Of a stretch of 36,074 nucleotides of DNA, positions 652 to 26,309 are shown in pieces. A program made the translations under genes and the position numbers. Each line of letters begins with the position of its first letter. Position 1 is the first letter of the stretch. The notes beneath the pieces were generated by a model that worked only from the letters and a program-made list of their open reading frames with translations, had not been told where the DNA came from and did no database searches. This DNA is from a virus, in IMG/VR virus record IMGVR_UViG_3300045988_089796; one strand, given 5' to 3'.

Positions 652-705
652 AACTACCTCTTTTTTATTTTGATGTCTCTTTTAGCTATTCTAATATAAA
701 ACCGC

Positions 706-1095
706 TTGAATATACAGTCGTGCAATATTGATTTTACGACTATACCAGGCAATAAATATAGTGCTGAAGAGCAAGATACAGGTCAAAAATGGCTCGACGG
801 TCGCCCTATCTATCGTAAAGTCGTGCGTGGCACTGTGAACATGACTGGCAACAGCACATCGAGGCTCGCTCATGGTATTCAAGGCTTAACTAGTAGATGG
901 GAACTAATAAAATATTATGGCAATATGCGGCTTGGCGGTACTTTATCAAACAATCCTGTAAAACAGGCACTGCCTTATATTGAGAACACGCATCAGTCGG
1001 GAATTACGTCAATAGACGAGACTACTGTAACAATATCAGGCAGTTATCCTTGGGGTAATTCAGAGGTTAGTCTTGTACTAGAATATGTTAAATAA
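706..1095 (+). CDS. Silent alternative tail-fibre C-terminal cassette in inverted orientation. It has no ATG and no RBS.
   Basis: This is the only credible plus-strand ORF. Its frame opens at 700 after a TAA, the first possible start is a TTG, and no SD is present. Residues CNIDFTTIP repeat the DNIDFTTMP of the minus-strand tail fibre at the nucleotide level. The body carries a tail-fibre-tip-like motif (EEQDTGQKWLDGRPIYRKVV). Its stop at 1093-1095 lies 1 nt from the convergent tail-fibre stop at 1097-1099. Confidence 0.6.
   Translation: MNIQSCNIDFTTIPGNKYSAEEQDTGQKWLDGRPIYRKVVRGTVNMTGNSTSRLAHGIQGLTSRWELIKYYGNMRLGGTLSNNPVKQALPYIENTHQSGITSIDETTVTISGSYPWGNSEVSLVLEYVK
723..743. repeat. Left inverted repeat of the putative invertible tail-fibre segment
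   Basis: caatattgattttacgactat is the perfect reverse complement of 1452..1472. It occupies the same codon phase in ORF 706..1095 as its partner does in the tail-fibre gene. Confidence 0.85.
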
Positions 1096-1096
1096 C

Positions 1097-2056
1097 CTAG
1101 CCTATAGCTATCCAGTTCACATAATACGTTCCCAAAAGTGGCGCGCCGTCGAAACGTCGACATCTAGCCGTAAAGCCTGAGTTTGTAACACCTACCGCAC
1201 TAAAAGCACATCCACCCCAGGATGAATTCGGGGTATCTGTCCACCCGTCGCCAGGTTGACCATATCCGCCAAAGCTACAGACCACAGTCGGGATTGTACC
1301 TGACGTGAATGATTCTGGAAAAGTGATTTGAGCCGTAGCCTCAAGTGTAGCCACTGGAGCATTTAGCATAGCCACACCACACTGGATTTTCACAGGTTTA
1401 TCGCCGACCGTTCTGTTATTGCGCTGTATCTTAGTGTTTTCAGATATCGGCATAGTCGTAAAATCAATATTGTCAGCCTTTATTGTTGTCTGAGCAATTT
1501 TGCTTCCACTTACTGAGCCGTTCTCTAAATAATCACCGTTGAACGGCAAGCCTACCATTTTTCTCATGTCCATAATCGACGTCTGAGCAAGCGATGTAGC
1601 GTTAGCGTTTATTCGAACTCGACCAAAAACGATGTAAGGGTTAGTCGCTCCCACGCCAGACTGAATGACTGAGGCAGGTGGGTCTTGTGGTGAGGCGGCA
1701 GGTGTACCCGCAATCTCTTTAATTTTGAAAATGCCGTTGGTGTTGTCTATCACTGTAGTTGTTGGTGAGACGGATTTGTCTATATAGCCTACAATCAGAG
1801 AGTTCCGCGGTAAAGACGGTGAGGCTGCGGCTAAAGTTATGACCTCGTCTGTATCTGCTTGAACCATATGTCCGTAACCAAGCCCAGTGTCGATGTTGGC
1901 TGTGCCAGCTTTTACGACCACTTTAAGCCCCGTTCCGCCTGGGGCTACAATATTCAACCCGTTTGCAACTGACGTGCCATACAGGGCGTTTATAAAGGCT
2001 GAGAGGGCGGCTTGTGAGTGTCTGCCCCCGTTCATATTGAAAACTTTTTTTGTCAT
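1097..2056 (-). CDS. Tail fibre / receptor-binding protein. The C-terminus currently expressed is H-type-lectin-like.
   Basis: 319 aa with an AAGGAGAA RBS. It is the last structural gene before the lysis genes. The C-terminus (QITFPESFTSGTIPTVV...VGVTNSGFTARCRRF...YYVNWIAIG) has an H-type lectin-like pattern. The constant N-terminal part ends at the DNIDFTT repeat. Confidence 0.65.
   Translation of the reverse strand: MTKKVFNMNGGRHSQAALSAFINALYGTSVANGLNIVAPGGTGLKVVVKAGTANIDTGLGYGHMVQADTDEVITLAAASPSLPRNSLIVGYIDKSVSPTTTVIDNTNGIFKIKEIAGTPAASPQDPPASVIQSGVGATNPYIVFGRVRINANATSLAQTSIMDMRKMVGLPFNGDYLENGSVSGSKIAQTTIKADNIDFTTMPISENTKIQRNNRTVGDKPVKIQCGVAMLNAPVATLEATAQITFPESFTSGTIPTVVCSFGGYGQPGDGWTDTPNSSWGGCAFSAVGVTNSGFTARCRRFDGAPLLGTYYVNWIAIG
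1452..1472. repeat. Right inverted repeat of the putative invertible tail-fibre segment
   Basis: atagtcgtaaaatcaatattg is the reverse complement of 723..743. It encodes (D)NIDFTT(M) inside tail-fibre gene 1097..2056. Confidence 0.85.
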
Positions 2057-2077: not shown

Positions 2078-2524
2078 TCATACCAACGTCAAGCTACCCT
2101 TTCCAGTAGACAAAGCGTAAAACTTTATTCTGTATGTTTCTTGCCTATCTCCCGCCGACAGTCTAAGTTTCACGGAAAAGTCTTGGTATTTTTCTGAAGT
2201 TGGGGGCTTCCTAAAAATGCGAATGTCTGGAGTCGGTGGGTACTGTGCTGAGGTTTTGACTTCGTGATGTTCAGCGATTTTGAAGCAAGCTGGTTGCTTT
2301 CCGTCTCTTGTTTTTTCGGGCGTGAACCTAGCCGTGTAGTTGTACTCTTGCTCAAGCGCGTTAGCTGGCAAGGTGATTTCTACGTCCCAAACTTTCTCTG
2401 TTTGAGACTTAAAAGTTTTGACTGCGTCTGAGCCTACAATCTGATTACCTTTTAGCTCGTTGAAGTCCGTCTCAAGTTCTCGAATTATCGAGATTAGGTC
2501 ATTGTCTTCGCTTAATCTACTCAT
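2078..2524 (-). CDS. Distal-tail/baseplate-associated protein, paralog 3 of 3
   Basis: I place the start at MSRLSEDNDLISIIRELETDFNELKGNQIVGSDAVKTF (ATG at 2524), 2 nt after the upstream stop. The N-terminal helix is homologous to that of 2527..2961. Confidence 0.55.
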   Translation of the reverse strand: MSRLSEDNDLISIIRELETDFNELKGNQIVGSDAVKTFKSQTEKVWDVEITLPANALEQEYNYTARFTPEKTRDGKQPACFKIAEHHEVKTSAQYPPTPDIRIFRKPPTSEKYQDFSVKLRLSAGDRQETYRIKFYALSTGKGSLTLV

Positions 2525-2526
2525 CC

Positions 2527-2961
2527 TCAATACCTCTCTGCTCTTATTGTAACAGGGGCGTTGGCAATCACCGTAGCTCTGATGTTGAACGTATAGCCTG
2601 TAGCTTGATTTCCGAAAACAGGCACGAACCAAGCCATAAAGTCCGCACCGTATCTTGTAGGGTCAAGCGGGAATGAGAACGGGGCAGAGTCTAACTCCAT
2701 AGCTCTGTCAATCTCAACCACCATATCTGCCACTAGGTCTATCCCCTCGGATTGAACGTAAAATATGACAGCTCCCCACTTACTGCCTGGAATTTGTCCG
2801 TTCTTGTCGCACGTGATAGAGATATCCCAGGGCTTACCTGATGTTTGCGGATAAGTCATAATCTGATTTGAGCCTATAAATTGACGGCTTTTCAGCTCGT
2901 TCCTTTCTCTCTGCAAGATGTGGATACGTTCTATCAAACTGTTGTCGTCTCTGTAAATCAT
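2527..2961 (-). CDS. Distal-tail/baseplate-associated protein, paralog 2 of 3
   Basis: 144 aa. Its N-terminus (SLIERIHILQRERNELKSRQFIGSNQIMTYPQTSGKPWDISIT) aligns with paralog 3 (SIIRELETDFNELKGNQIVGSDAVKTFKSQTEKVWDVEIT). Confidence 0.55.
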   Translation of the reverse strand: MIYRDDNSLIERIHILQRERNELKSRQFIGSNQIMTYPQTSGKPWDISITCDKNGQIPGSKWGAVIFYVQSEGIDLVADMVVEIDRAMELDSAPFSFPLDPTRYGADFMAWFVPVFGNQATGYTFNIRATVIANAPVTIRAERY

Positions 2962-2976
2962 TTCTCATATTCCCAT

Positions 2977-3573
2977 CTACGTAATATAGCGATAGCTCTT
3001 TACTAACATTCTCAACTGTCCTTTGTCCGTGCTTCTCACGAAAAATCGGAACTTCAAGCTTATACCTTGTCCTGGTGGTGTTTCCCAGTAAAATGACGAT
3101 TTCCATCTATACACTGGTTTCTGTAAAGAATAATTCGTCAAATCGTTTTGATAATTTAATTCGCTGTTAGCCAGTAGAGAAGCCTGCCCAGTAGAGGCTA
3201 TCATACAAACTCCAAAGTTCGGATTGTAAGACGGTTGCAATCTCGCAGAATTATTCAGCAAGGCATCTAGGTAGGGTATCACAATTGGGCAGTCTTGATT
3301 TAATGGTCGAAATTCACACGTAACGTCTAAGTTGTTGAGTGCACCTACCATTGAAGTCGGGGGCAGGTTCACGGTGTCGGTGGTAGTTACTACCCCGTTG
3401 TAATCCGTGTACTCGAAAGACTGCCAGTCCGTACTTTTAGGATTTAAGTATGTTTTCACGCCCGATTTATTAGAGGTAGGTTGAGGTGTAAGTTTGAGGT
3501 CTATCAATTTAGCCTCCAGGTTGGCAATTCGCCTCTGTAGGTGCATTTCCTGCATGTCGTTTAATCTGTTCAT
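2977..3573 (-). CDS. Distal-tail/baseplate-associated protein, paralog 1 of 3 (more divergent)
   Basis: 198 aa. It has an N-terminal coiled coil (LQRRIANLEAKLIDLKL) followed by a beta-rich body, the same layout as the two downstream genes. It lies directly after Tal. Confidence 0.5.
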   Translation of the reverse strand: MNRLNDMQEMHLQRRIANLEAKLIDLKLTPQPTSNKSGVKTYLNPKSTDWQSFEYTDYNGVVTTTDTVNLPPTSMVGALNNLDVTCEFRPLNQDCPIVIPYLDALLNNSARLQPSYNPNFGVCMIASTGQASLLANSELNYQNDLTNYSLQKPVYRWKSSFYWETPPGQGISLKFRFFVRSTDKGQLRMLVKSYRYIT

Positions 3574-14003: not shown

Positions 14004-16139
14004 CTACAAATCTTTCATGACGGGTAGTAGCACACAGCGACATCTCACATGCAAAGGTTGATGAGCGATATCCTCATAGTTGAAGTTCAACACTGCGTCG
14101 CTCTTGTTCTCTCTCGGCACTACCATGCTGTCGCCCTTGTTATAGAAGTTGTCGTCGATTGAGACTGTTCTGTTATGCATAGCTCCGCAAAACTTACACA
14201 CTCGTTCGTCTTTACTCGTATACCAGCGCTTGGCGGTTACTTGTCCCGACTGCCTCCACGCTTCCACATCGGCAAAGCCTTGACTTCTCGTGGTTTCACT
14301 CTCGGCTATTTTGTAGGCTCGGTCTTGTGCGGCGTATCCGAATATCTGATTTACGGTCTCGGTCAGTTCATGGATACTGTCCCCGTTCATCATTCCCTGA
14401 GATAGGGCAGCTCGTATCTGCTTCTTGGTCTCGTCGGTGATGGTCTTTGAGGCTTTCAGTGGTTCTGCTTCCAAGAACCTCTGTATCCTGAGTGAGAATG
14501 GGTCAAAATCTGGTAAGTCGGTCAGGTTCAACGCCTCCAGTGCGTCTTTCCCCGTTTCCTCGATAATCATCGTGTAGATATGCTTCATCGTCTCCGCGAA
14601 CTCCGATTGGTACTTCTCCCAGTCCGCCATATCGTCCAACATTTCCTTCTTTTGCTTCTGTGAGGCTGTAGGATACGTTTTGAGGGCGTTTCCCAACCAT
14701 TTCAATACATCTTCCCTCTGAGCGTTAAACATCGCCTTAGAGGCTCTTAGAATGAGGTTTTCGTAGTTCCTCGCTCTCCGCGTGTACAATACAGATTTCG
14801 CTTCCCCGATGGCTTCTATCTCGTCCGTCTCTTCACCTTTTTTTAGGCTTTTCTCACCCTCCTCTTCGTCAGGTGTAGTCTCGGGTGTAGGTTGTGATGT
14901 AGTCTCGGGTTTCGTCATTTCGGCTATCACATCAATCGGCACTTCATTGAGAGGTCGATACAGAACCGCTCCTGCTCCGTTCTCCAACGGTGGTAGTCCT
15001 CGCTTCTCTCTGATTTCGTCAATCGTCAACCATTTGTTAATTCCCTGAGTATCCTCTGCTAGGGCTTGGGTCTTATCTTCTGGTACTGGGTTCACAAAGT
15101 CTATCTCTAGTGCTGGGTCGTATTTCTCCACCAGTTCCACATTCAACAGCTCTTTCAGTCCTCGCACTCGTGGCAAGACTACTCGCTTTGCCATTGTATA
15201 ATCTTGAGCCTCAGCGTTGGCTCGGTTCACGTCCTCTGTCATTCCCACAATCGACGGTGAAGTTCTGAACATCGCGAATATCTCGTCTTTTGAGAACTTT
15301 CTCGATTCTAGGAAGTCCAGGTCTTGCTGGTTGAGAGAGTACGGCACTAGCTTAGCTCCGCCCTCCAGGATAATCTGCTTAAAGGCGTTATCACTGCCCG
15401 CATGAGCTTCGTCCATTTGCTTACTCAATCTCTGGTAGGTTTCGTCGGTCATGACGTCAGGTACTTCTAGCACTGCTGATGGTCTGGCTGCGTTGGCGAA
15501 TAAGCCTCGGTTCCATTCTCGCATACGATAATCAGTGTCTAACACCATTGCTGAAGCCTTGATAATACTACGTCCTTGATACGGATTGTCTGGGTCAGGA
15601 TTGATATCCCGAATAAAACAATCAAGCGGGATATCTCGTCCCAGGAAGTTCACCATGCTGTCCTCTCGACTTTCTCCAAGTTTCAAGTTCGCAAGGTGAG
15701 ATGGTATCACGTGTAAAGCATGAGGTATCTGGTTAGAGTCTGCGTCCATGATTTCGCCGTTTCGCATTTTCAGGATGTAGACTTCTCCCGTTAAGTTCAT
15801 GTACTGGTAGTACAAACTCCAGAACTGAGAACCTCTGAGCCAGCCGTTCGGTCTCTTCAATAAGTCTAGTATTTCGTGGTCGAAGATTTCCTCGCGGTCG
15901 CCATTCTTTTTTCTCTTGTAAAGTTTCAATTCAATTGAGGCACATTCCTCAGCAATAGCAGAGTTAGCCGCAAACACCCAGCCTATGTTAGCTCTCAGTT
16001 GAGACTGTTTTGATGAATAGTTATTCACACGTGAGCTTCCACTGAAGTTTCCACTCAGATATTTGTCTAGGTCAATATGAGGTACGTCCTGGAATACTGT
16101 CCCTCCTATTAGATTCTTGATTACTCTCTGCATTCTCAT
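14004..16139 (-). CDS. Portal protein fused to a Mu F / SPP1 gp7-like minor head domain
   Basis: 711 aa. The first 400 aa or so are portal-like. The C-terminal 250 aa or so (IRAALSQGMMNGDSIHELTETVNQIF...ESETTRSQGFADVEAW...WYTSKDERVCKFCGAMHN) match the head-morphogenesis Mu F pattern. Confidence 0.8.
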   Translation of the reverse strand: MRMQRVIKNLIGGTVFQDVPHIDLDKYLSGNFSGSSRVNNYSSKQSQLRANIGWVFAANSAIAEECASIELKLYKRKKNGDREEIFDHEILDLLKRPNGWLRGSQFWSLYYQYMNLTGEVYILKMRNGEIMDADSNQIPHALHVIPSHLANLKLGESREDSMVNFLGRDIPLDCFIRDINPDPDNPYQGRSIIKASAMVLDTDYRMREWNRGLFANAARPSAVLEVPDVMTDETYQRLSKQMDEAHAGSDNAFKQIILEGGAKLVPYSLNQQDLDFLESRKFSKDEIFAMFRTSPSIVGMTEDVNRANAEAQDYTMAKRVVLPRVRGLKELLNVELVEKYDPALEIDFVNPVPEDKTQALAEDTQGINKWLTIDEIREKRGLPPLENGAGAVLYRPLNEVPIDVIAEMTKPETTSQPTPETTPDEEEGEKSLKKGEETDEIEAIGEAKSVLYTRRARNYENLILRASKAMFNAQREDVLKWLGNALKTYPTASQKQKKEMLDDMADWEKYQSEFAETMKHIYTMIIEETGKDALEALNLTDLPDFDPFSLRIQRFLEAEPLKASKTITDETKKQIRAALSQGMMNGDSIHELTETVNQIFGYAAQDRAYKIAESETTRSQGFADVEAWRQSGQVTAKRWYTSKDERVCKFCGAMHNRTVSIDDNFYNKGDSMVVPRENKSDAVLNFNYEDIAHQPLHVRCRCVLLPVMKDL

Positions 16140-18588: not shown

Positions 18589-19219
18589 TTTTCTTCTCCT
18601 TTTCTTTCCATTCTTTTTTATATTTGAGCTGTTTGTCTGTTTCCCAAGACTTTCCATACTCAACGTCTTCAAATAGTTTACTAAAGCCCGTGATGTGTTT
18701 CAATCGTGCTAACTCTTCCGCCTCAAGCCCTAGCTCTTTACAGATTTCTTGGTCGCTCTTCCCGTTTTGAAGCATATCAAAAACGATTGTACTCATCCCT
18801 GCGACTGAGTGCTTGCCTCTCGCTCGGTTGTGTCGAACGGTAGACGCCATTCTTTCGTTGATGTCTTTATTCAAAACCACGCACGGAAGATATCCGTTAT
18901 TCAGCTCGTAGATATCTTTGTTAGTCCTCATAGTCGTGTAGCGGTGAAATCCGTCCACAATGACATACTTCTGGATACTCTCATCCCAGATGGTTACGAC
19001 CGGCATTGTGTAGGTGTCGTGGAAGATTGACAGATACAAAAGCCTCATCTCGTTACGGGCTACAGCGTTTGGGTTGTAGTCGTTAGCTTGCACTTGCTCA
19101 ATCGGTATGAACTTCACATTAGCTACGGCGTTATGTTTACAAAACTCTGGTAGGTGTGAGTTGTCTACCTCGTAAATTGGGCGTTTCTCGGTGTTCTCTT
19201 TTTGTTCCATTTTAGTCAT
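18548..19219 (-). CDS. IbrB-like ParB-domain protein
   Basis: 223 aa. The ParB/Srx fold motifs are FIPIEQVQANDYNPN...VIVDGFHRYTTMR. It overlaps the stop of the upstream PAPS-reductase-like gene. Confidence 0.65.
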   Translation of the reverse strand: MTKMEQKENTEKRPIYEVDNSHLPEFCKHNAVANVKFIPIEQVQANDYNPNAVARNEMRLLYLSIFHDTYTMPVVTIWDESIQKYVIVDGFHRYTTMRTNKDIYELNNGYLPCVVLNKDINERMASTVRHNRARGKHSVAGMSTIVFDMLQNGKSDQEICKELGLEAEELARLKHITGFSKLFEDVEYGKSWETDKQLKYKKEWKEKEKKNGNADKQTDTDKA

Positions 19220-20342
19220 AAACTTTCTCTCCTCTCATTCGTCTACGTGCTAATACTTGGTGTGGATTATTCTCCCAGTTTTTAAGCTTCGTTAAAGCGT
19301 CATCGTTATTCACTATTGAGTTCACATGAAGCTTATACAGTTCTTTGTCAGGGACGATACCAGCATAAAGCCTCTCATGCTCGGCAAACTTTCTGGCAAG
19401 CTTGTTCTTTAGCTCGTCATTGTTGACGATAAGCTTATCCAGTAAATAATCTCTGTACTCTTTCCAGCTCGTGAACATGAACGGTAGTTCTTTCACCCAA
19501 AAATCTTCAAAGCCCATTTTGGCGGCAGTGTCTACACCGTTGAGCCTCGCTACGACTCTGTTATAAGTATCTGCCTCAAACTCTTGTAAAAAGAATAGCG
19601 ACCTCACCGCGGTAACGTGAACAAGGCTCGACACTCGCATGTCTCTGACTGAAGTTCCGTACTGGTACATCACGTCGTAAAGCTTAGAATAAGTCCAGCC
19701 GTTGTCGTGAATGGCTTTCCAAACATCAACATAGCTCCAATCGTAAATCGGGTAAAACGTGTACTGGTCTTTACCTTTGAGCCTCTTACCCCAAGTAATC
19801 CACTTATAAGTTACAAGATTAGTCAACCCTGTAAAGCGCGTCGGTGATTCTTCAGTGCGAACTCCGCCTAACATTGCTACCCGTTGACCTGCGAACTCTT
19901 TAGCTATAACAGCGTCGTACATTTCGCTAAATCTATCCACTCCGTACGTATTCTCTTTGATTGAGATAGGGTCTTTCTCGTGTATCCACTTGTCTTTTTC
20001 GTTCTCGTCCCAAGCGTGGAGAAAAGCTTTTTCTTTGTCTTGTGCCGCGGTGGAGTTGAACATCTTAAAGGGTACTTGTATCCAGTACGGCTTCACCCTC
20101 GGGTCATACATCACTTCCCTTACTACGTCTATCGTAGACTGCCACTCCGCCTCTTGGTCTATGAACAATACAGGCAGTGGAAGCCTCCCCAGCTCCTCCG
20201 CGACTTCCAAGGCGAGGTGGAAAACTACGACGCTGTCTTTACCTCCACTGAATGCTACTACTACATTGGGGAAGTCCTCAAAAAGCTCTCGAATACGTCT
20301 CTTTGAAGCTTCATAAACATTCTCTTTTGAATAATATTTCAT
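19212..20342 (-). CDS. IbrA-like PAPS reductase / PP-loop ATP pyrophosphatase family protein
   Basis: 376 aa. It carries the PP-loop VVAFSGGKDSVVV and a long helical C-terminal extension. It is paired with a ParB-like gene as in IbrA/IbrB and DndC/DndB-type pairs. Confidence 0.7.
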   Translation of the reverse strand: MKYYSKENVYEASKRRIRELFEDFPNVVVAFSGGKDSVVVFHLALEVAEELGRLPLPVLFIDQEAEWQSTIDVVREVMYDPRVKPYWIQVPFKMFNSTAAQDKEKAFLHAWDENEKDKWIHEKDPISIKENTYGVDRFSEMYDAVIAKEFAGQRVAMLGGVRTEESPTRFTGLTNLVTYKWITWGKRLKGKDQYTFYPIYDWSYVDVWKAIHDNGWTYSKLYDVMYQYGTSVRDMRVSSLVHVTAVRSLFFLQEFEADTYNRVVARLNGVDTAAKMGFEDFWVKELPFMFTSWKEYRDYLLDKLIVNNDELKNKLARKFAEHERLYAGIVPDKELYKLHVNSIVNNDDALTKLKNWENNPHQVLARRRMRGEKVYD

Positions 20343-22133: not shown

Positions 22134-22334
22134 TTATGATACAGCAAAATACCAAAGCCATACAGTAGCCCAGAATGTCGTCAAAATCGTCAAGACGGTG
22201 ATTATCCATTTTGCGATGTTCAGCGCGTTACAGAGCCTCTCACGGCGTTGTAGCACCCGTTTTTCTTTGAGTTGTTCATCGCGAACCCAAGCTCTGGTTG
22301 ATATAAAGGTGGTTGTGGTGTTTATTTCGTTCAT
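22134..22334 (-). CDS. Small membrane protein
   Basis: 66 aa with a C-terminal TM helix (WIITVLTILTTFWATVWLWYFAV). It is the first gene after promoter 22341..22369. Confidence 0.5.
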   Translation of the reverse strand: MNEINTTTTFISTRAWVRDEQLKEKRVLQRRERLCNALNIAKWIITVLTILTTFWATVWLWYFAVS

Positions 22335-22340
22335 ATTCTT

Positions 22341-22369
22341 AGTTTATATCATCGTGCTTATGTTGTCAA
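22341..22369 (-). promoter_or_regulatory. Sigma-70/SigA-type promoter (TTGACA-17-TAAACT), member of a 4-copy family
   Basis: The minus strand reads TTGACAacataagcacgatgataTAAACT. It shares the spacer motif TAAGCACG with the other three copies. Confidence 0.6.
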
Positions 22370-22374
22370 CACTT

Positions 22375-22773
22375 TTATTCAAAAATCATATTTTTTGCGT
22401 CTGTTATCCTGAACTCGGCGAAAGAATCGTCAATACCGTCAGTGTTTAATTTCTTGTCAGAGACGATTGGATATCCGAATCTTTTCCAATCAGCGTATAT
22501 GTATAACCAAATCTCACTGATGAAGTACTGTCTCTTTGGGTTTGTTGACTGATATCTTCTTAAGAATATGACGTTGATGTCTCTATCTTGTTTACGTATA
22601 TAGTTCAGTTTCTCATTCAGGTAAAATCGACTAAGGTCGTTTCCGTTTGAGCTGTCAATCCACATAAAGCCAATTTCTGAAGACCCTCGCTTGAATTGTG
22701 GATTATCTTTGTAAAAGCTTTCCCAGTATCTACGGAAGATTTTGCTGTTTGAACATACTACTAAATTAGTCAT
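22375..22773 (-). CDS. Hypothetical protein
   Basis: I favour the start MTNLVVCSNSKIF (ATG at 22773), which overlaps the upstream stop by 8 nt. The track ORF extends to 22800. Confidence 0.5.
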   Translation of the reverse strand: MTNLVVCSNSKIFRRYWESFYKDNPQFKRGSSEIGFMWIDSSNGNDLSRFYLNEKLNYIRKQDRDINVIFLRRYQSTNPKRQYFISEIWLYIYADWKRFGYPIVSDKKLNTDGIDDSFAEFRITDAKNMIFE

Positions 22774-23077
22774 TGGCTTTCTCATAAAGCACCCTCTCAA
22801 TTCCCTTTACTTTTTCCGTATAGTATTCAATCTTTTCTACTAATTCGTATGTGTAGATTTTCTCAGTTGATTTTGAACGTCGGTCAAGCTCTTGTAGTTT
22901 TGAGTAACCGTAAGTTTTAATCATGAACAAAGCGTACGCGGTGTAGTTTCCATTTAAGAAAATATTACAGCGCTTGCAATTGTGATGAGCCAATCCATCA
23001 GCTATAAATGTGCCTGTAGAAGTTTGCACTGCGTAAACTCTCCTAGGCTCAACTTTTTTGATTGACTTTACTCGCAT
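22766..23077 (-). CDS. ninG: Split-intein C-fragment (33 aa) fused to the C-extein of a NinG/Rap-like nuclease
   Basis: It has its own strong RBS (GGAGGAGGAGAAGTT-ATG). MRVKSIKKVEPRRVYAVQTSTGTFIADGLAHHN corresponds to intein blocks F/G and ends in HN. It is followed by C(+1)KRCNIFLNGNYTAY, the CxxCN...GN..Y motif of NinG. Confidence 0.75.
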   Translation of the reverse strand: MRVKSIKKVEPRRVYAVQTSTGTFIADGLAHHNCKRCNIFLNGNYTAYALFMIKTYGYSKLQELDRRSKSTEKIYTYELVEKIEYYTEKVKGIERVLYEKAND

Positions 23078-23857
23078 AACTTCTCCTCCTCCCTGTGATT
23101 AAGTGAGCTACTGTCGAATATGGCATTCCAACTTGTTCTCCAGCTTTTTTATATGAAAGCCCACTCTCAACTAGTGATATTACCGTTAGACATTGTTTTT
23201 TGGTGTATTTTAGATTTGTTCCGCTGTCTTTTGGCAGCAGAGCAATCCTCCCGTTATCAATAGCGTGTCTCATATTTTCTTTATGACTTACCCATTCAAG
23301 GTTTTCGATTGAGTTATTTTGTTTATTGAAGTCTTTATGATTTACCTCTGGCTTGTTTTCTGGATTTGGTATAAAAGCACTAGCTACAAGTCTATGCACC
23401 TGGTAGTTGCCGTTGGTAGTTCTTGCATAATAGTATCCTCTTTTGTTTTTTTGGATACGTCTTTTTCTTAGCGTGCCATCATCATGATAAGTGCGAGAAC
23501 TCCACACAGTGCCGTCCTCGGCTATGTACCATTTAGTATGTTTCGTCTCGTCAAATAGTGCTTTTTTCATAGTTCAAAAATATCATACGTAGACTGACTT
23601 TGCAACATACAATTTATACACTTCCAGCTACCGTTCGCAACCACCTTGTGGTCGCCTGTAGCATAGAACTTGTCGCCGTTCTCCATTTCAACCTCGTATA
23701 GTTCGCTAGGTATAAAGCTATCAGTACTTTCAACGATTGCAACTTTAGGCTCGAAAGTATCTTCATCGAAAGCCCACAATTTATCTCCAACTTTAACGTC
23801 TGCTATGCTTTTATTCGTGCCGTTAAACATTCTAAGCCTGCTGTCCTCTGTCAGGCA
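22979..23857 (-). mobile_element. Split intein plus homing endonuclease gene insertion (IntN 23570..23857, HNH gene 23049..23570, IntC 22979..23077)
   Basis: See the three CDS entries above. The insertion sits exactly in the catalytic/zinc motif HPQ|CKRCN of the host gene. Confidence 0.7.
23049..23570 (-). CDS. Free-standing HNH homing endonuclease (NUMOD4-like N-terminus, HNH_3-like core, C-terminal HTH)
   Basis: 173 aa. Motifs are WYIAEDGTVWS, GYYYARTTNGNYQVHRLVASAF, PEVNHKDFNKQNNSIENLEWVSHKEN and the HTH LSYKKAGEQVGMPYSTVAHLITG. Its ATG overlaps the IntN stop (ATGA). It is in a different frame from both intein halves. Confidence 0.8.
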   Translation of the reverse strand: MKKALFDETKHTKWYIAEDGTVWSSRTYHDDGTLRKRRIQKNKRGYYYARTTNGNYQVHRLVASAFIPNPENKPEVNHKDFNKQNNSIENLEWVSHKENMRHAIDNGRIALLPKDSGTNLKYTKKQCLTVISLVESGLSYKKAGEQVGMPYSTVAHLITGRRRSYASKVNQKS

Positions 23858-24094
23858 CTGTGGATGTACATTGTCTTCGCTCCACCTTGTCGCATACTTC
23901 CCTCGTGAGATGTAGTGTCCAGCGTCCATCTTTGTGATATCTTGAACTACTCCACACGTACAGCACTTATTCAGTATTCTGCGGTCGGGGGTGATTTTTG
24001 CACCCCGCAACCTTACCCATTTTGAGAAGATTGAGTCTAACCGTTTGACTACCTCTCCTCTGGTCATTTTCTTATTTTTGATGTTAGTCTTCAT
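23567..24094 (-). CDS. ninG: N-extein of a NinG/Rap-like nuclease fused to a split-intein N-fragment (96 aa)
   Basis: I favour the start MKTNIKNKKMTRGE (ATG at 24094, AAGGAG RBS). The extein (LDSIFSKWVRLRG...CCTCG...DAGHYISRGKYATRWSEDNVHPQ) has the NinG pattern. From the Cys codon at 23857..23855 onward, CLTEDSRLRMFNGTNKSIADVKVGDKLWAF...FYATGDHKVV corresponds to Hint blocks A/B. Confidence 0.75.
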   Translation of the reverse strand: MKTNIKNKKMTRGEVVKRLDSIFSKWVRLRGAKITPDRRILNKCCTCGVVQDITKMDAGHYISRGKYATRWSEDNVHPQCLTEDSRLRMFNGTNKSIADVKVGDKLWAFDEDTFEPKVAIVESTDSFIPSELYEVEMENGDKFYATGDHKVVANGSWKCINCMLQSQSTYDIFEL

Positions 24095-24368
24095 AATTCT
24101 CCTTGATGAACTTCCTCGCCTGTCTGAACGTTCTGAACCTACCCAGAATTTCCACCTCGCCATCTACTCTTGCCAGCTCTATGTTGTGTTTTCTCAGTCT
24201 AGCCACATCCGCATACAGTTTTTCAATCCTCTTAGCTTCTTCTGGGGTGATACACGTCTTTATCTCTTCGAAGTGAGGCGGTATTCTTAGGTTCACAATT
24301 GAGAAAATCGCACCGCTCGCTTCCCAAGCCTCTTGTCGTTTCGGGTCTCCAGCTCTTAATCGTTTCAT
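24084..24368 (-). CDS. Hypothetical protein
   Basis: 94 aa. It abuts the stop of the upstream gene at 24369. Confidence 0.5.
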   Translation of the reverse strand: MKRLRAGDPKRQEAWEASGAIFSIVNLRIPPHFEEIKTCITPEEAKRIEKLYADVARLRKHNIELARVDGEVEILGRFRTFRQARKFIKENYED

Positions 24369-25313
24369 TTATTTACTCCCCAGCATGCAACCTATGAAGT
24401 TCTCGGTTTGGTCTTCGAATATTGTCTTTTTGAGGTCTTTCTCAAGCTTATCCATATCGTTATCTATTTGGTCTTCCCGTAACAATTTACTGCCAATCAC
24501 GACGTTGAACTCGTTGTTGTATTCTTGCTTGATTATATCCTCCAGATTGGTATTGTGCCAGAATTGACTAGAGTTTCCATAGCCAAAGGGTTCAATCGTA
24601 GGCGAATTCTCTCGAAATTTGAACTGACAGCGTCTGAAAAAATCAGAGTGCGTAGCAATAGCTATATCGTTTATATTAAAGACCTCATCGAACTTCTTGA
24701 CTACTATCTCGCAGTGTGAGTTATCGTTCGTATACATAACAGTGATTGCACACCGAACCTGGTTAGTTTCCAACCAATCTACCAGCCGTTTTACTCGCTC
24801 AGACCGTTTATTTATTAGCTCGTGGTCGACCTCACAGCTTGCCATAGCTGGTATCAAAATATTTACGCGCTTAGAACGTGGATTTCCGTTGTACATACTC
24901 CCGAAAGTCTCTGGTATCCCCTCGACGTATCTGCCCATGTCGATGAAGTCGCCTGTAACGTCATACTCTATACTCATACCAGCACTATCACCGCCCAAAA
25001 TCTTGTCGTCTTTCTCGATGAAGTTTGCAACCTTAGACGGATTATTTTTGAAAGTGTCTATCGCCTCATCGTAAGTATCGAAGAAGTAGAATTCGTCTTT
25101 ACCCCTCCTTTGAGAACTGTCTCCATACTTCCCAATCTTCAAACTCGTCTCTGTCAAAGCGTTTAAGAATATGTCGACACCCTCGAACTTTCCACAAAGC
25201 TCTCTGATTTCAAGATATTTTAGGCTTGTCTTGGTTCTGTTGCCGACCCTGCCAAAGATGTAGCCGTCCCCTCGCTCGATATCTGCCAAAGTGTTATAGT
25301 CTATCAGTTCCAC
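24369..25313 (-). CDS. Partner protein of the AAA+ ATPase. It may have a vWA-like fold with a degenerate MIDAS, but this is an inference.
   Basis: 314 aa, 6 nt downstream of the ATPase gene. The segment RVNILIPAMASCEVDHELINKRSERVKRLVDWLETNQVRCAITVMY has the beta-alpha-beta rhythm of a vWA/Rossmann-like core. Confidence 0.35.
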   Translation of the reverse strand: MELIDYNTLADIERGDGYIFGRVGNRTKTSLKYLEIRELCGKFEGVDIFLNALTETSLKIGKYGDSSQRRGKDEFYFFDTYDEAIDTFKNNPSKVANFIEKDDKILGGDSAGMSIEYDVTGDFIDMGRYVEGIPETFGSMYNGNPRSKRVNILIPAMASCEVDHELINKRSERVKRLVDWLETNQVRCAITVMYTNDNSHCEIVVKKFDEVFNINDIAIATHSDFFRRCQFKFRENSPTIEPFGYGNSSQFWHNTNLEDIIKQEYNNEFNVVIGSKLLREDQIDNDMDKLEKDLKKTIFEDQTENFIGCMLGSK

Positions 25314-25319
25314 AACGAC

Positions 25320-26309
25320 CTACCAGATTATCTCAGCCTCTTCCGCCTCGGCTGTTTTGCGTGCTTTTTTCGTTTCTGAGTTATCGTTCCATTTCTTGTT
25401 AGCTATGTCTCGAAAACGCGACTTCTTATCATTTGGTAAGTTTTCCACAATCACCGCGTCAAGAACAGTTTGAAAATCAAGCCCGATGTTCAATAAAGAA
25501 CAGCCTTTCATAGTAGCTCGTGGCGTTACCAAAGCCCGAATACCGTCTTCCTCGATAGTCTTTCTCAGTTCTCGCACGACCTTGAGCCATTTCTTGCCAG
25601 TGTCTCCGTATGACTCTGCCATTTTATCTTCCAGTTTCTCATCAACGTCCCAGACCAACACAGCGAAGCGGTCAAGCGTGGCAGCGTCAAGTTGGTTACG
25701 ACCGACATACATACGGTTAGCACCGTTTCCGAACGTGTTAGCAGAGGCGATAAAGACAAAGTCCTTGTGTCGTTCCACCATTTTGTCAGGAAAGGCACAG
25801 AACCCGTTAGACAGTGCTGCGTTGACCTGAATAAGAACGTTAGCGTTGCCAGCGTCGATTTCGTCCATCAAGAACACTCCGCCCTCCTCATACGCTTTAC
25901 GGAAGAGCGTCGGCACGTAGCCTCCTGAAGCGTGCATATAGCCGATTATGTCTGATTTTGAGGTTTGAGCACCTACCGACATTGTGTAGTGTTTCAATCC
26001 CAACGCCTCAGCGACCTGAGCGGCAGCATGCGTCTTTCCAGTACCAGCCATTCCGACTAACATTACAGGGATTTTCTGGGAAGCCATAACAATCAGATTG
26101 TCCAAAGACTTGTGGCGTAAGCCTTTAACCTCGTGAATCTTGCCATTATACTCAATTTTGACTGGCGTGTTTTCTTTGATAGATTTCTCAGCGTTTTTTA
26201 CCAGTTTTTTCAGCTCGGGTATTTCGCTTGATATTTTACTGTCAATTTTGTCTGAGACTGTTTTGTCAATCTCGTCTAGTAGGGTGTTTAGCCCAGAGAA
26301 GTTTGCCAT
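25320..26309 (-). CDS. AAA+ ATPase (AAA_5; MoxR/CobS-like)
   Basis: 329 aa. It has Walker A (VGMAGTGKTHAA), Walker B (GGVFLMDEIDAG), sensor 1 (FVFIASANT) and an Arg finger region (ATLDRF). Confidence 0.8.
   Translation of the reverse strand: MANFSGLNTLLDEIDKTVSDKIDSKISSEIPELKKLVKNAEKSIKENTPVKIEYNGKIHEVKGLRHKSLDNLIVMASQKIPVMLVGMAGTGKTHAAAQVAEALGLKHYTMSVGAQTSKSDIIGYMHASGGYVPTLFRKAYEEGGVFLMDEIDAGNANVLIQVNAALSNGFCAFPDKMVERHKDFVFIASANTFGNGANRMYVGRNQLDAATLDRFAVLVWDVDEKLEDKMAESYGDTGKKWLKVVRELRKTIEEDGIRALVTPRATMKGCSLLNIGLDFQTVLDAVIVENLPNDKKSRFRDIANKKWNDNSETKKARKTAEAEEAEIIW

Follow-up and report, generated by a model that had tools for sequence, protein, structure and literature searches.

The window analysed here is the whole 36,074-nt stretch of DNA held as IMG/VR virus record IMGVR_UViG_3300045988_089796, and its subject is a NinG/Rap nuclease gene interrupted by a split intein, the two halves of which flank a gene for an HNH endonuclease. 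Three consecutive open reading frames (ORFs) form this locus, and they were found on the minus strand, as are all parts of the locus given below, at the coordinates proposed in an initial annotation. The first, ORF1 (24094..23567; 175 aa), reads MKTNIK...EDNVHPQ|CLTEDSRLRM...YATGDHKVV...STYDIFEL* and joins the NinG N-extein to the N-terminal intein fragment (IntN). The N-extein (23858..24094; 79 aa, MKTNIK to EDNVHPQ) carries the first CxxC and the DAGH motif, and IntN (23570..23857; 96 aa, CLTEDSRLRM to STYDIFEL) contains the Cys1 of block A and the TxxH of block B. A longer ORF1 could begin at an ATG at 24163; we placed the start at 24094 because AAGGAG precedes it, it overlaps the stop codon of the upstream gene and it matches the start of all homologues.

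The stop codon of the N-half, TGA (23567..23569), overlaps the start codon of ORF2 as ATGA (23570..23567), an arrangement that is also found in the related loci L005, L006, L010 and L025. ORF2 (23049..23570; 173 aa) is a free-standing HNH_3 endonuclease gene, the product of which has a C-terminal helix-turn-helix, and its frame differs from that of both intein halves. ORF3 (23077..22766; 103 aa) follows with signals of its own: a Shine-Dalgarno sequence, GGAGGAGG (23085..23092), lies 7 nt upstream of its ATG, within the codons for the C-terminal tail (GRRRS) of the HNH protein. ORF3 reads MRVKSIKKVEPRRVYAVQTSTGTFIADGLAHHN|CKRCNIFLNGNY... and comprises the 33-aa C-terminal intein fragment (IntC, 22979..23077), with blocks F and G, the penultimate His and the terminal Asn, and then the NinG/Rap C-extein with the stop codon (22766..22978; 70 aa), which begins with Cys+1.

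The insertion point lies between the Q and the C of QCKRCN. Each intein half is a separate ORF, fused in frame to one half of NinG and provided with its own stop or start, and the endonuclease gene sits between the halves on the same strand, the halves being 0.5 kb apart. ORF1 and ORF3 are read in one frame and ORF2 in another; 13 stop codons interrupt the ORF1/ORF3 frame between the halves, and therefore read-through cannot yield a single protein.

Family assignment of the three ORFs

The two halves of NinG are matched consecutively by the same profiles. Pfam NinG (PF05766; cut-off 25.4 bits) covered ORF1 with profile positions 68-133 (32.7 bits) and ORF3 with positions 128-192 (32.4 bits), and the NinG/Rap profile phrog_5034 of the PHROGs collection was divided alike, with positions 5-72 on ORF1 and 67-133 on ORF3. 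These matches bear out the earlier proposal that NinG exteins flank an insertion within QCxxCN. The proposal of a free-standing HNH gene in another frame, coupled to the N-half by an ATGA overlap, likewise agrees with our analysis, as ORF2 matched Pfam HNH_3 with 45.2 bits (E 7.3e-12; cut-off 24.8) and phrog_59 with an E value of 2.7e-39; the separate Shine-Dalgarno sequence and ATG claimed for the C-half were also found. The HNH protein shares approximately 36% of its residues with proteins annotated as HNH homing endonucleases in Enterococcus, Lactobacillus and Bacillus phages. Residues 79-154 of ORF1 were matched by both the Hint (4.8e-5) and the Intein_splicing (6e-5) profiles, in each case under the curated cut-off. 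To our knowledge, structure-specific (junction) endonuclease activity in the NinG/Rap family has been known only for lambda Rap, and a PDB sequence search with NinG returned no solved homologue.

Distribution of the split NinG gene

ORF1 was compared with 5.8 billion proteins, and the relatives returned were one of 175 aa that is 95% identical and ends alike, seven N-halves of 165-176 aa that are approximately 50% identical and all end in ...YDI(L/M)E(L/I/M), two NinG proteins without an intein (149 and 146 aa), and one 279-aa protein in which both intein halves are joined (P0002). The corresponding search with ORF3 returned 14 C-halves of 94-105 aa, every one of which starts with M(K/R)(I/V)K at a common position. 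In addition, IntN alone was run exhaustively with HMMER against 1.84 billion representatives and found 358 matches at E<=1e-3; the best ~30 short matches, which represent clusters at 50% identity, are NinG N-halves with IntN that all end in ...YDI(L/M)E(L/I/M)*.

At the DNA level, more than 40 loci from gut and environmental metagenomes, drawn from Logan, ENA, IMG/VR and JGI, carry the break at the identical residue. Most of the loci that were fetched have the same three-ORF layout, with an IntN of 95-98 aa from Cys1 and an HNH ORF of 162-176 aa ahead of IntC. The same breaks were present in loci from independent samples that are 85-95% identical (L005, L013-L015 and L052), and also in relatives that are only approximately 50% identical. 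Since the same residue is used in ~30 diverged clusters and in more than 40 loci, and since the segments are under purifying selection (see below), the break is no sequencing artefact; the initial annotation was therefore right in treating it as something other than a contiguous intein disrupted by an indel or a frameshift.

Splicing residues, selection and fold

The residues of class-1 protein splicing are in place on both sides of the break. Block A reads HPQ|CLTEDS, with C80 and L81 invariant in 32 relatives; the TxxH of block B reads ATGDH, with T146 and H149 invariant in the same number; and TSTGTFIADGLAHHN-C, which spans blocks F and G (TFIADGLAHHN|C), is invariant in 13 C-halves. Across the family, little or no variation is seen in Cys1, the Thr and His of block B, the terminal His-Asn and Cys+1. 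The fragment sizes of 96 and 33 aa bear out the earlier proposal of a split Hint domain, here of class 1.

The ratio of non-synonymous to synonymous substitution rates (dN/dS) was calculated between the window and L005, which comes from an independent ENA sample. It was 0 for the N-extein, 0.23 for IntN, 0.15 for HNH, 0 for IntC (5 synonymous and 0 non-synonymous changes) and 0.10 for the C-extein, values that derive from few substitutions (19 in IntN, 5 in IntC) and are consistent with each other. On this comparison, all five segments are judged to be under purifying selection.

The two intein fragments carry opposite net charges, -9 for IntN and +4 for IntC in the window, with family means of -6.5 (n=34) and +2.7 (n=14), respectively. 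The split inteins of cyanobacterial DnaE likewise have an acidic IntN and a basic IntC.

The fold was assessed on the contiguous allele P0002, which is 87% identical. Its AlphaFold model has a mean predicted local distance difference test score of 76 that is low only at the splice junctions, and all of the top 50 Foldseek matches of this model in the PDB are inteins or HINT domains, with template modelling scores of 0.72 for the Ssp DnaB mini-intein (1mi8), 0.72 for gp41-1, 0.70 for NpuDnaB and 0.66 for NrdJ-1. A PDB sequence search with the joined intein gave marginal matches only (best E=1e-3). The alignment used for structure prediction (A4) was free of foreign C-halves, which in alignments A2 and A3 had been put on the N-extein or on IntN. 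In A3, MAFFT laid the IntC fragments (VKSIKKVEPRRVYAVQTSTG-TFIADG) over the IntN stretch VESTDSFIPSELYEVEMENGDKFYATGDH, a placement that the internal pseudo-two-fold repeat of the HINT fold may explain.

Allele series in sister phages

Sister contigs of ~36 kb share the gene order of the window upstream of NinG (AAA ATPase, DUF7192, 94-aa ORF), with the genes further downstream differing from contig to contig, and they hold the NinG gene in several states. The empty allele is present in L002, L003 and L004, where the site reads CCACAG|TGCAAACGC. The L002 junction, ...GTACATCCACAG|TGCAAACGCTGTAAT..., corresponds to CCACAG|TGCAAxCGC at the DNA level, so that the insertion in the window is precise and in frame. 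The intein-less protein P0004 (149 aa) is identical at 147 of 149 positions to the spliced product predicted for the window: the N-extein of the window is 100% identical to residues 1-79 of P0004, and the C-extein matches its C-terminal part at 68 of 70 positions. The split allele with HNH was found in L005, L013, L014, L015 and L052 as well as in the window, and a contiguous allele with a 130-aa mini-intein was found in two different samples, in L001 (3001..3840) and in L016 (~2400..3241; this contig is also L023 and L053). The HNH gene is therefore sporadic at a fixed site in syntenic genomes, being present in the window and in the other loci with the split allele and absent from L001-L004 and L016.

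Further states come from more distant phages. L007 (1960..2863) is split and free of the endonuclease; of the lost HNH gene it retains the 3' end as a 28-nt spacer, in which the Shine-Dalgarno sequence and the ATG are preserved. L009 (3001..3821) is also split and endonuclease-free; the IntN stop overlaps the IntC start as ATGA, and the halves lie in different frames. P0073 (253 aa) is an in-frame fusion of IntN with the helix-turn-helix tail from the C-terminus of the HNH protein (...MPYSTVPHLIRGSRRNIK) and looks like the product of a decayed endonuclease gene. Finally, L080 (~700..1310) carries between its NinG intein halves an HNH of another lineage (phrog_374/3377, without a Pfam match) instead of the HNH_3 of phrog_59, which suggests that the endonuclease was replaced at the same split site. 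Programmed frameshifting that would produce one polypeptide was considered and rejected, as the endonuclease-free alleles keep two ORFs in different frames.

When the window was compared to distant loci, identity was 23-34% for the exteins, 56-65% for IntN, 52-57% for HNH and 55-82% for IntC. As conservation is far stronger in the intein and HNH parts than in the exteins, the cassette appears to have moved as one unit among very different NinG genes. Mobility of this kind combined with empty alleles in sister phages is, so far as these comparisons reach, the signature of homing, and the HNH protein is presumed to be the homing endonuclease of the NinG/intein locus.

Origin of the contiguous allele

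The contiguous alleles in L001 and L016 share one junction, ...GATATTCTGAGTTATGAAAAAGCAC-CT-GTTAT(G/A)CG..., with TATGAAAAAGCAC before the CT. In DNA alignments, the stretch 23081..23557 of the window is absent from both and replaced by 2 nt. Compared to the split allele, ~476 nt (23557..23081) are thus gone and one T fewer is present in the run before the IntN stop, and therefore the TGA is bypassed and the frame is restored. The junction keeps the HNH start and its first four codons (ATG AAA AA(A) GCA C = MKKA) in the linker (SYEKAPV). The N-terminus MKKA is specific to the HNH proteins of the window clade, those of other clades being MKEL or MRKL.

We rejected the contiguous allele as the ancestral form: it carries the clade-specific HNH start (ATGAAAAAGCAC), a neighbour-joining tree of IntN places it among split alleles within the window clade, and all outgroups are split. 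A scenario of insertion needs a target that already held the first and the last endonuclease codons. Because the junction keeps the HNH start and the tree nests the contiguous alleles among split ones, the contiguous allele is probably a secondary re-fusion of the split intein. In the model of Dassa et al. (2009), the endonuclease is lost and a contiguous gene is re-created by in-frame endonuclease capture (PMC2677866); the re-fusion route proposed here, by deletion of the endonuclease body together with a 1-nt frameshift, is not part of that model.

Taken together, these data make rather likely, if with some reserve, a joint reading in which the locus represents a large and previously undescribed family of natural split inteins (~30 clusters at 50% identity from phages of the gut and the environment), the allele series of which would document a fractured gene through its entire life cycle in near-identical genomes: empty; split with HNH; split after loss of HNH, with a remnant spacer or with ATGA-coupled halves; and with the endonuclease replaced by another HNH lineage. 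The same reading would include a natural reversal, from a split intein to a cis-splicing mini-intein, by deletion of the endonuclease body and a 1-nt frameshift that left the HNH start codon in the linker.

Proposed trans-splicing and alternative explanations

We consider, with a probability of roughly 0.85, that the locus is a functional fractured NinG/Rap gene, the products of which would be joined by trans-splicing, a reaction to which the conserved catalytic residues and the charge complementarity of the fragments point. In the mechanism that we propose, in which the chemistry of splicing, coupled expression and the endonuclease target are all inferred, one minus-strand transcript would give NinG(1-79)-IntN (175 aa), HNH_3 (173 aa) and IntC-NinG(80-149) (103 aa), with translation of the HNH protein coupled through the ATGA and the C-half translated from its own strong Shine-Dalgarno sequence. 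The acidic IntN and the basic IntC would then associate into a complete class-1 HINT fold, and standard class-1 chemistry would follow, with an N-S acyl shift at Cys1 and then trans-thioesterification to Cys+1 as its first steps, and with cyclisation of the terminal Asn and an S-N shift as its last. The product would be a 149-aa NinG with the QCKRCN motif restored, and before splicing the nuclease would be without its second CxxC. The HNH protein would serve as the engine of mobility, cutting cassette-free NinG alleles in co-infecting phages, and repair would copy in IntN-HNH-IntC as a unit.

Several points weigh against this reading. Both splicing and DNA cleavage by the HNH protein are read from sequence, and co-transcription of the three ORFs is assumed, no promoter or terminator signal standing out: a scan of the region found 4 promoter-like sites against 5.5 expected and 0 terminators, nothing above the shuffled expectation. 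The joined natural allele P0002 clears the Pfam Hint cut-off (33.2 versus 29.7 bits), but ORF1 alone, with 23.5 bits, remains under that cut-off of 29.7, and a Pfam search with IntC alone gave no match. The counts behind the dN/dS values are small, consistent as they are, and NinG may be dispensable for the phage, in which case selection on the exteins would be no proof that the halves are joined. The HNH protein could target endonuclease-free intein alleles rather than empty NinG alleles. The exclusion of an artefact draws on assembled sequences of the window and its relatives.

The alternative that fares best, although an improbable one, is that the locus is a non-splicing remnant, in which NinG is dead or the intein halves act only as non-covalent docking domains for the NinG fragments. 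Endonuclease-fragmented genes can indeed reassemble without splicing, as phage nrdA split by mobE is reported to do (PMC3045599), and splicing in the NinG split-intein family is a matter of sequence inference. However, every class-1 splicing residue is invariant or nearly so across the family, IntC shows 0 amino-acid against 5 synonymous changes, and two diverged contigs both carry a contiguous allele that has kept the splicing residues; in addition, the split lies inside the CxxC/N motif, where a non-covalent complex would leave the metal site broken.

Very unlikely, and more so than a remnant, is that the endonuclease is an ordinary phage HNH protein, for instance a packaging-associated one, that sits at the locus by chance and is no homing endonuclease for it. 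HNH_3 proteins abound in phages (2272 records matched), and site-specific cleavage by this one is presumed. Against a chance position, a homologous HNH ORF occurs at exactly the same intein point in most of the loci examined, from many phages and environments, its divergence tracks that of the intein parts and not that of the exteins, and it is absent from sister phages with the same backbone; the HNH of another family at the split site of L080 is typical of the turnover of selfish elements.

The idea that the locus is a contiguous intein with a nested HNH domain, broken by two sequencing or assembly frameshifts, has a negligible probability: ORF1 and ORF3 do share a frame, and homopolymer runs (T5 and A6) adjoin the left boundary, but none of the 173 HNH codons is read in the intein frame, which has the 13 stops across that stretch, the same breaks recur in the independent assemblies at 85-95% identity and in the ~30 clusters near 50%, and in the endonuclease-free L007 and L009 the halves remain separate ORFs, each in a frame of its own.

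Comparison with known systems

The locus matches a known architecture with a new host gene and a new endonuclease family. The likeness to the fractured genes of Dassa et al. (2009; PMC2677866), which include gp41-1, gp41-8, NrdJ-1, IMPDH-1, NrdA-2 and others, had been pointed out before and is apt. In both cases a gene half with IntN, a free-standing endonuclease and IntC with the other gene half follow each other on one strand, the intein is split at the canonical endonuclease-insertion point, and the C-half has its start within the 3' end of the endonuclease gene, which it overlaps. Endonuclease-free alleles exist in both sets (gp41-7 there; L007 and L009 here), as do a phage origin and a host enzyme of DNA metabolism that is interrupted at an active-site motif. 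The NinG locus differs from that set in its host gene, NinG/Rap lying outside their eight enzyme types, and in its endonuclease, which is HNH_3 here and only GIY-YIG or Vsr-like there. It also differs in having the ATG overlap the IntN stop, without the 27-51 nt non-coding spacer or hairpin before the endonuclease, and in that empty, contiguous and split alleles all occur in near-identical genomes. A GIY-YIG or Vsr-like endonuclease and a hairpin spacer describe the examples of 2009 and do not define the class.

Compared to the cyanobacterial DnaE split inteins (Ssp, Npu), the NinG intein has the same class-1 Cys1/Cys+1 and a canonical split into approximately 100 + 35 aa, and the HINT fold is also shared (PDB 4kl5, 1zd7 and 2keq are among the structural matches). 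Sequence similarity to them is negligible, with 15-16% identity in structural alignment, and whereas the DnaE halves are encoded at distant loci without an endonuclease (PMC2677866), those of NinG lie in one operon with the endonuclease between them. A partial parallel is nrdA of Aeromonas phage Aeh1, which is split by the free-standing HNH endonuclease mobE. There too a phage gene of DNA metabolism is turned into two ORFs that need reassembly, but this reportedly proceeds by non-covalent assembly and without an intein (PMC3045599), whereas complete intein halves flank the endonuclease here.

A second intein in the same host family was found in L012 (2899..4230; GenBank MT840030.1, an unannotated phage contig from human faeces), which encodes a contiguous NinG of 443 aa (Pfam NinG 73.6 bits) with a full-size intein and an in-frame LAGLIDADG endonuclease (GWIAGMIDADGHI). 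Its splicing blocks look homologous to those of the split intein (CLT.DS, VYEVELENGDK, TFIA.G.A.HN), but its insertion lies three residues downstream, before the second Cys of CxxCN (ECRH|C...HN|CN). A literature search, with subscription journals outside its coverage, found no paper on an intein in NinG, and NinG and Rap are unmentioned in an intein survey of 2015 (PMC4760082).

The block F/G motif TSTGTFIA(E/N)G..(S/T)HN also ends long contiguous inteins in other large phage proteins (L028-L051, from IMG/VR), in which the +1 residue is Cys, Ser or Thr, and therefore the NinG split intein belongs to a wider intein lineage. In Salmonella S16-like phages (H17, H27-H33), genes annotated as UvsW/DNA helicase hold a stretch that is 29-36% identical to the IntN of the window and is presumably an intein.

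Phage context and host

The window is the genome of a tailed phage with nearly all genes on the minus strand, and its products include a capsid protein of the HK97 type, a portal-MuF fusion and a prohead protease. The portal protein with its fused Mu-F-like domain lies at 14004..16139 (-) and a PAPS-reductase/DUF3440 protein at 19212..20342 (-); upstream of NinG are a DUF7192 protein (24369..25313, -) and an AAA ATPase (25320..26309, -), the best PHROG of which is labelled 'porphyrin biosynthesis'. In the phage-like contig L009, an IS605 OrfB/TnpB-type gene (898..2007; Cas12f1-like TNB domain) lies ~1 kb upstream of the split NinG.

Megablast of positions 22300-24500 against 50,697 phage records gave no match, and a tblastn search with the portal protein found no cultured phage closer than 26% identity. 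No relative and no prophage copy was detected when 185,579 bacterial and archaeal reference genomes were scanned with the IntC patterns. The nearest phage matches of the NinG extein are in phages of Bacteroidota and those of HNH in phages of Firmicutes. With these results, the earlier description of the genome as a Firmicutes-type siphophage finds no support.

Implications

Natural split inteins are few, and they form the basis of protein ligation, protein labelling and split-gene delivery. The NinG family offers dozens of diverged, canonically split (96 + 33 aa) Cys1/Cys+1 pairs for protein ligation, and its natural contiguous counterpart allows a direct comparison of cis- and trans-splicing; databases are still being mined for new split inteins (PMC12707363).

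In the gene-breaking model of 2009, endonuclease invasion, endonuclease loss and the re-creation of a contiguous gene are separate steps (PMC2677866). Here, four allele states occur in otherwise nearly identical phages, and therefore the order of events can be read from the junction sequences. The range of the class is widened as well, with a recombination nuclease added to the intein host proteins and HNH enzymes added to the endonucleases known between split-intein halves. Beyond the locus itself, the value of the finding lies in the size of the family, in the complete series of alleles and in the apparent reversal from a split to a contiguous intein.

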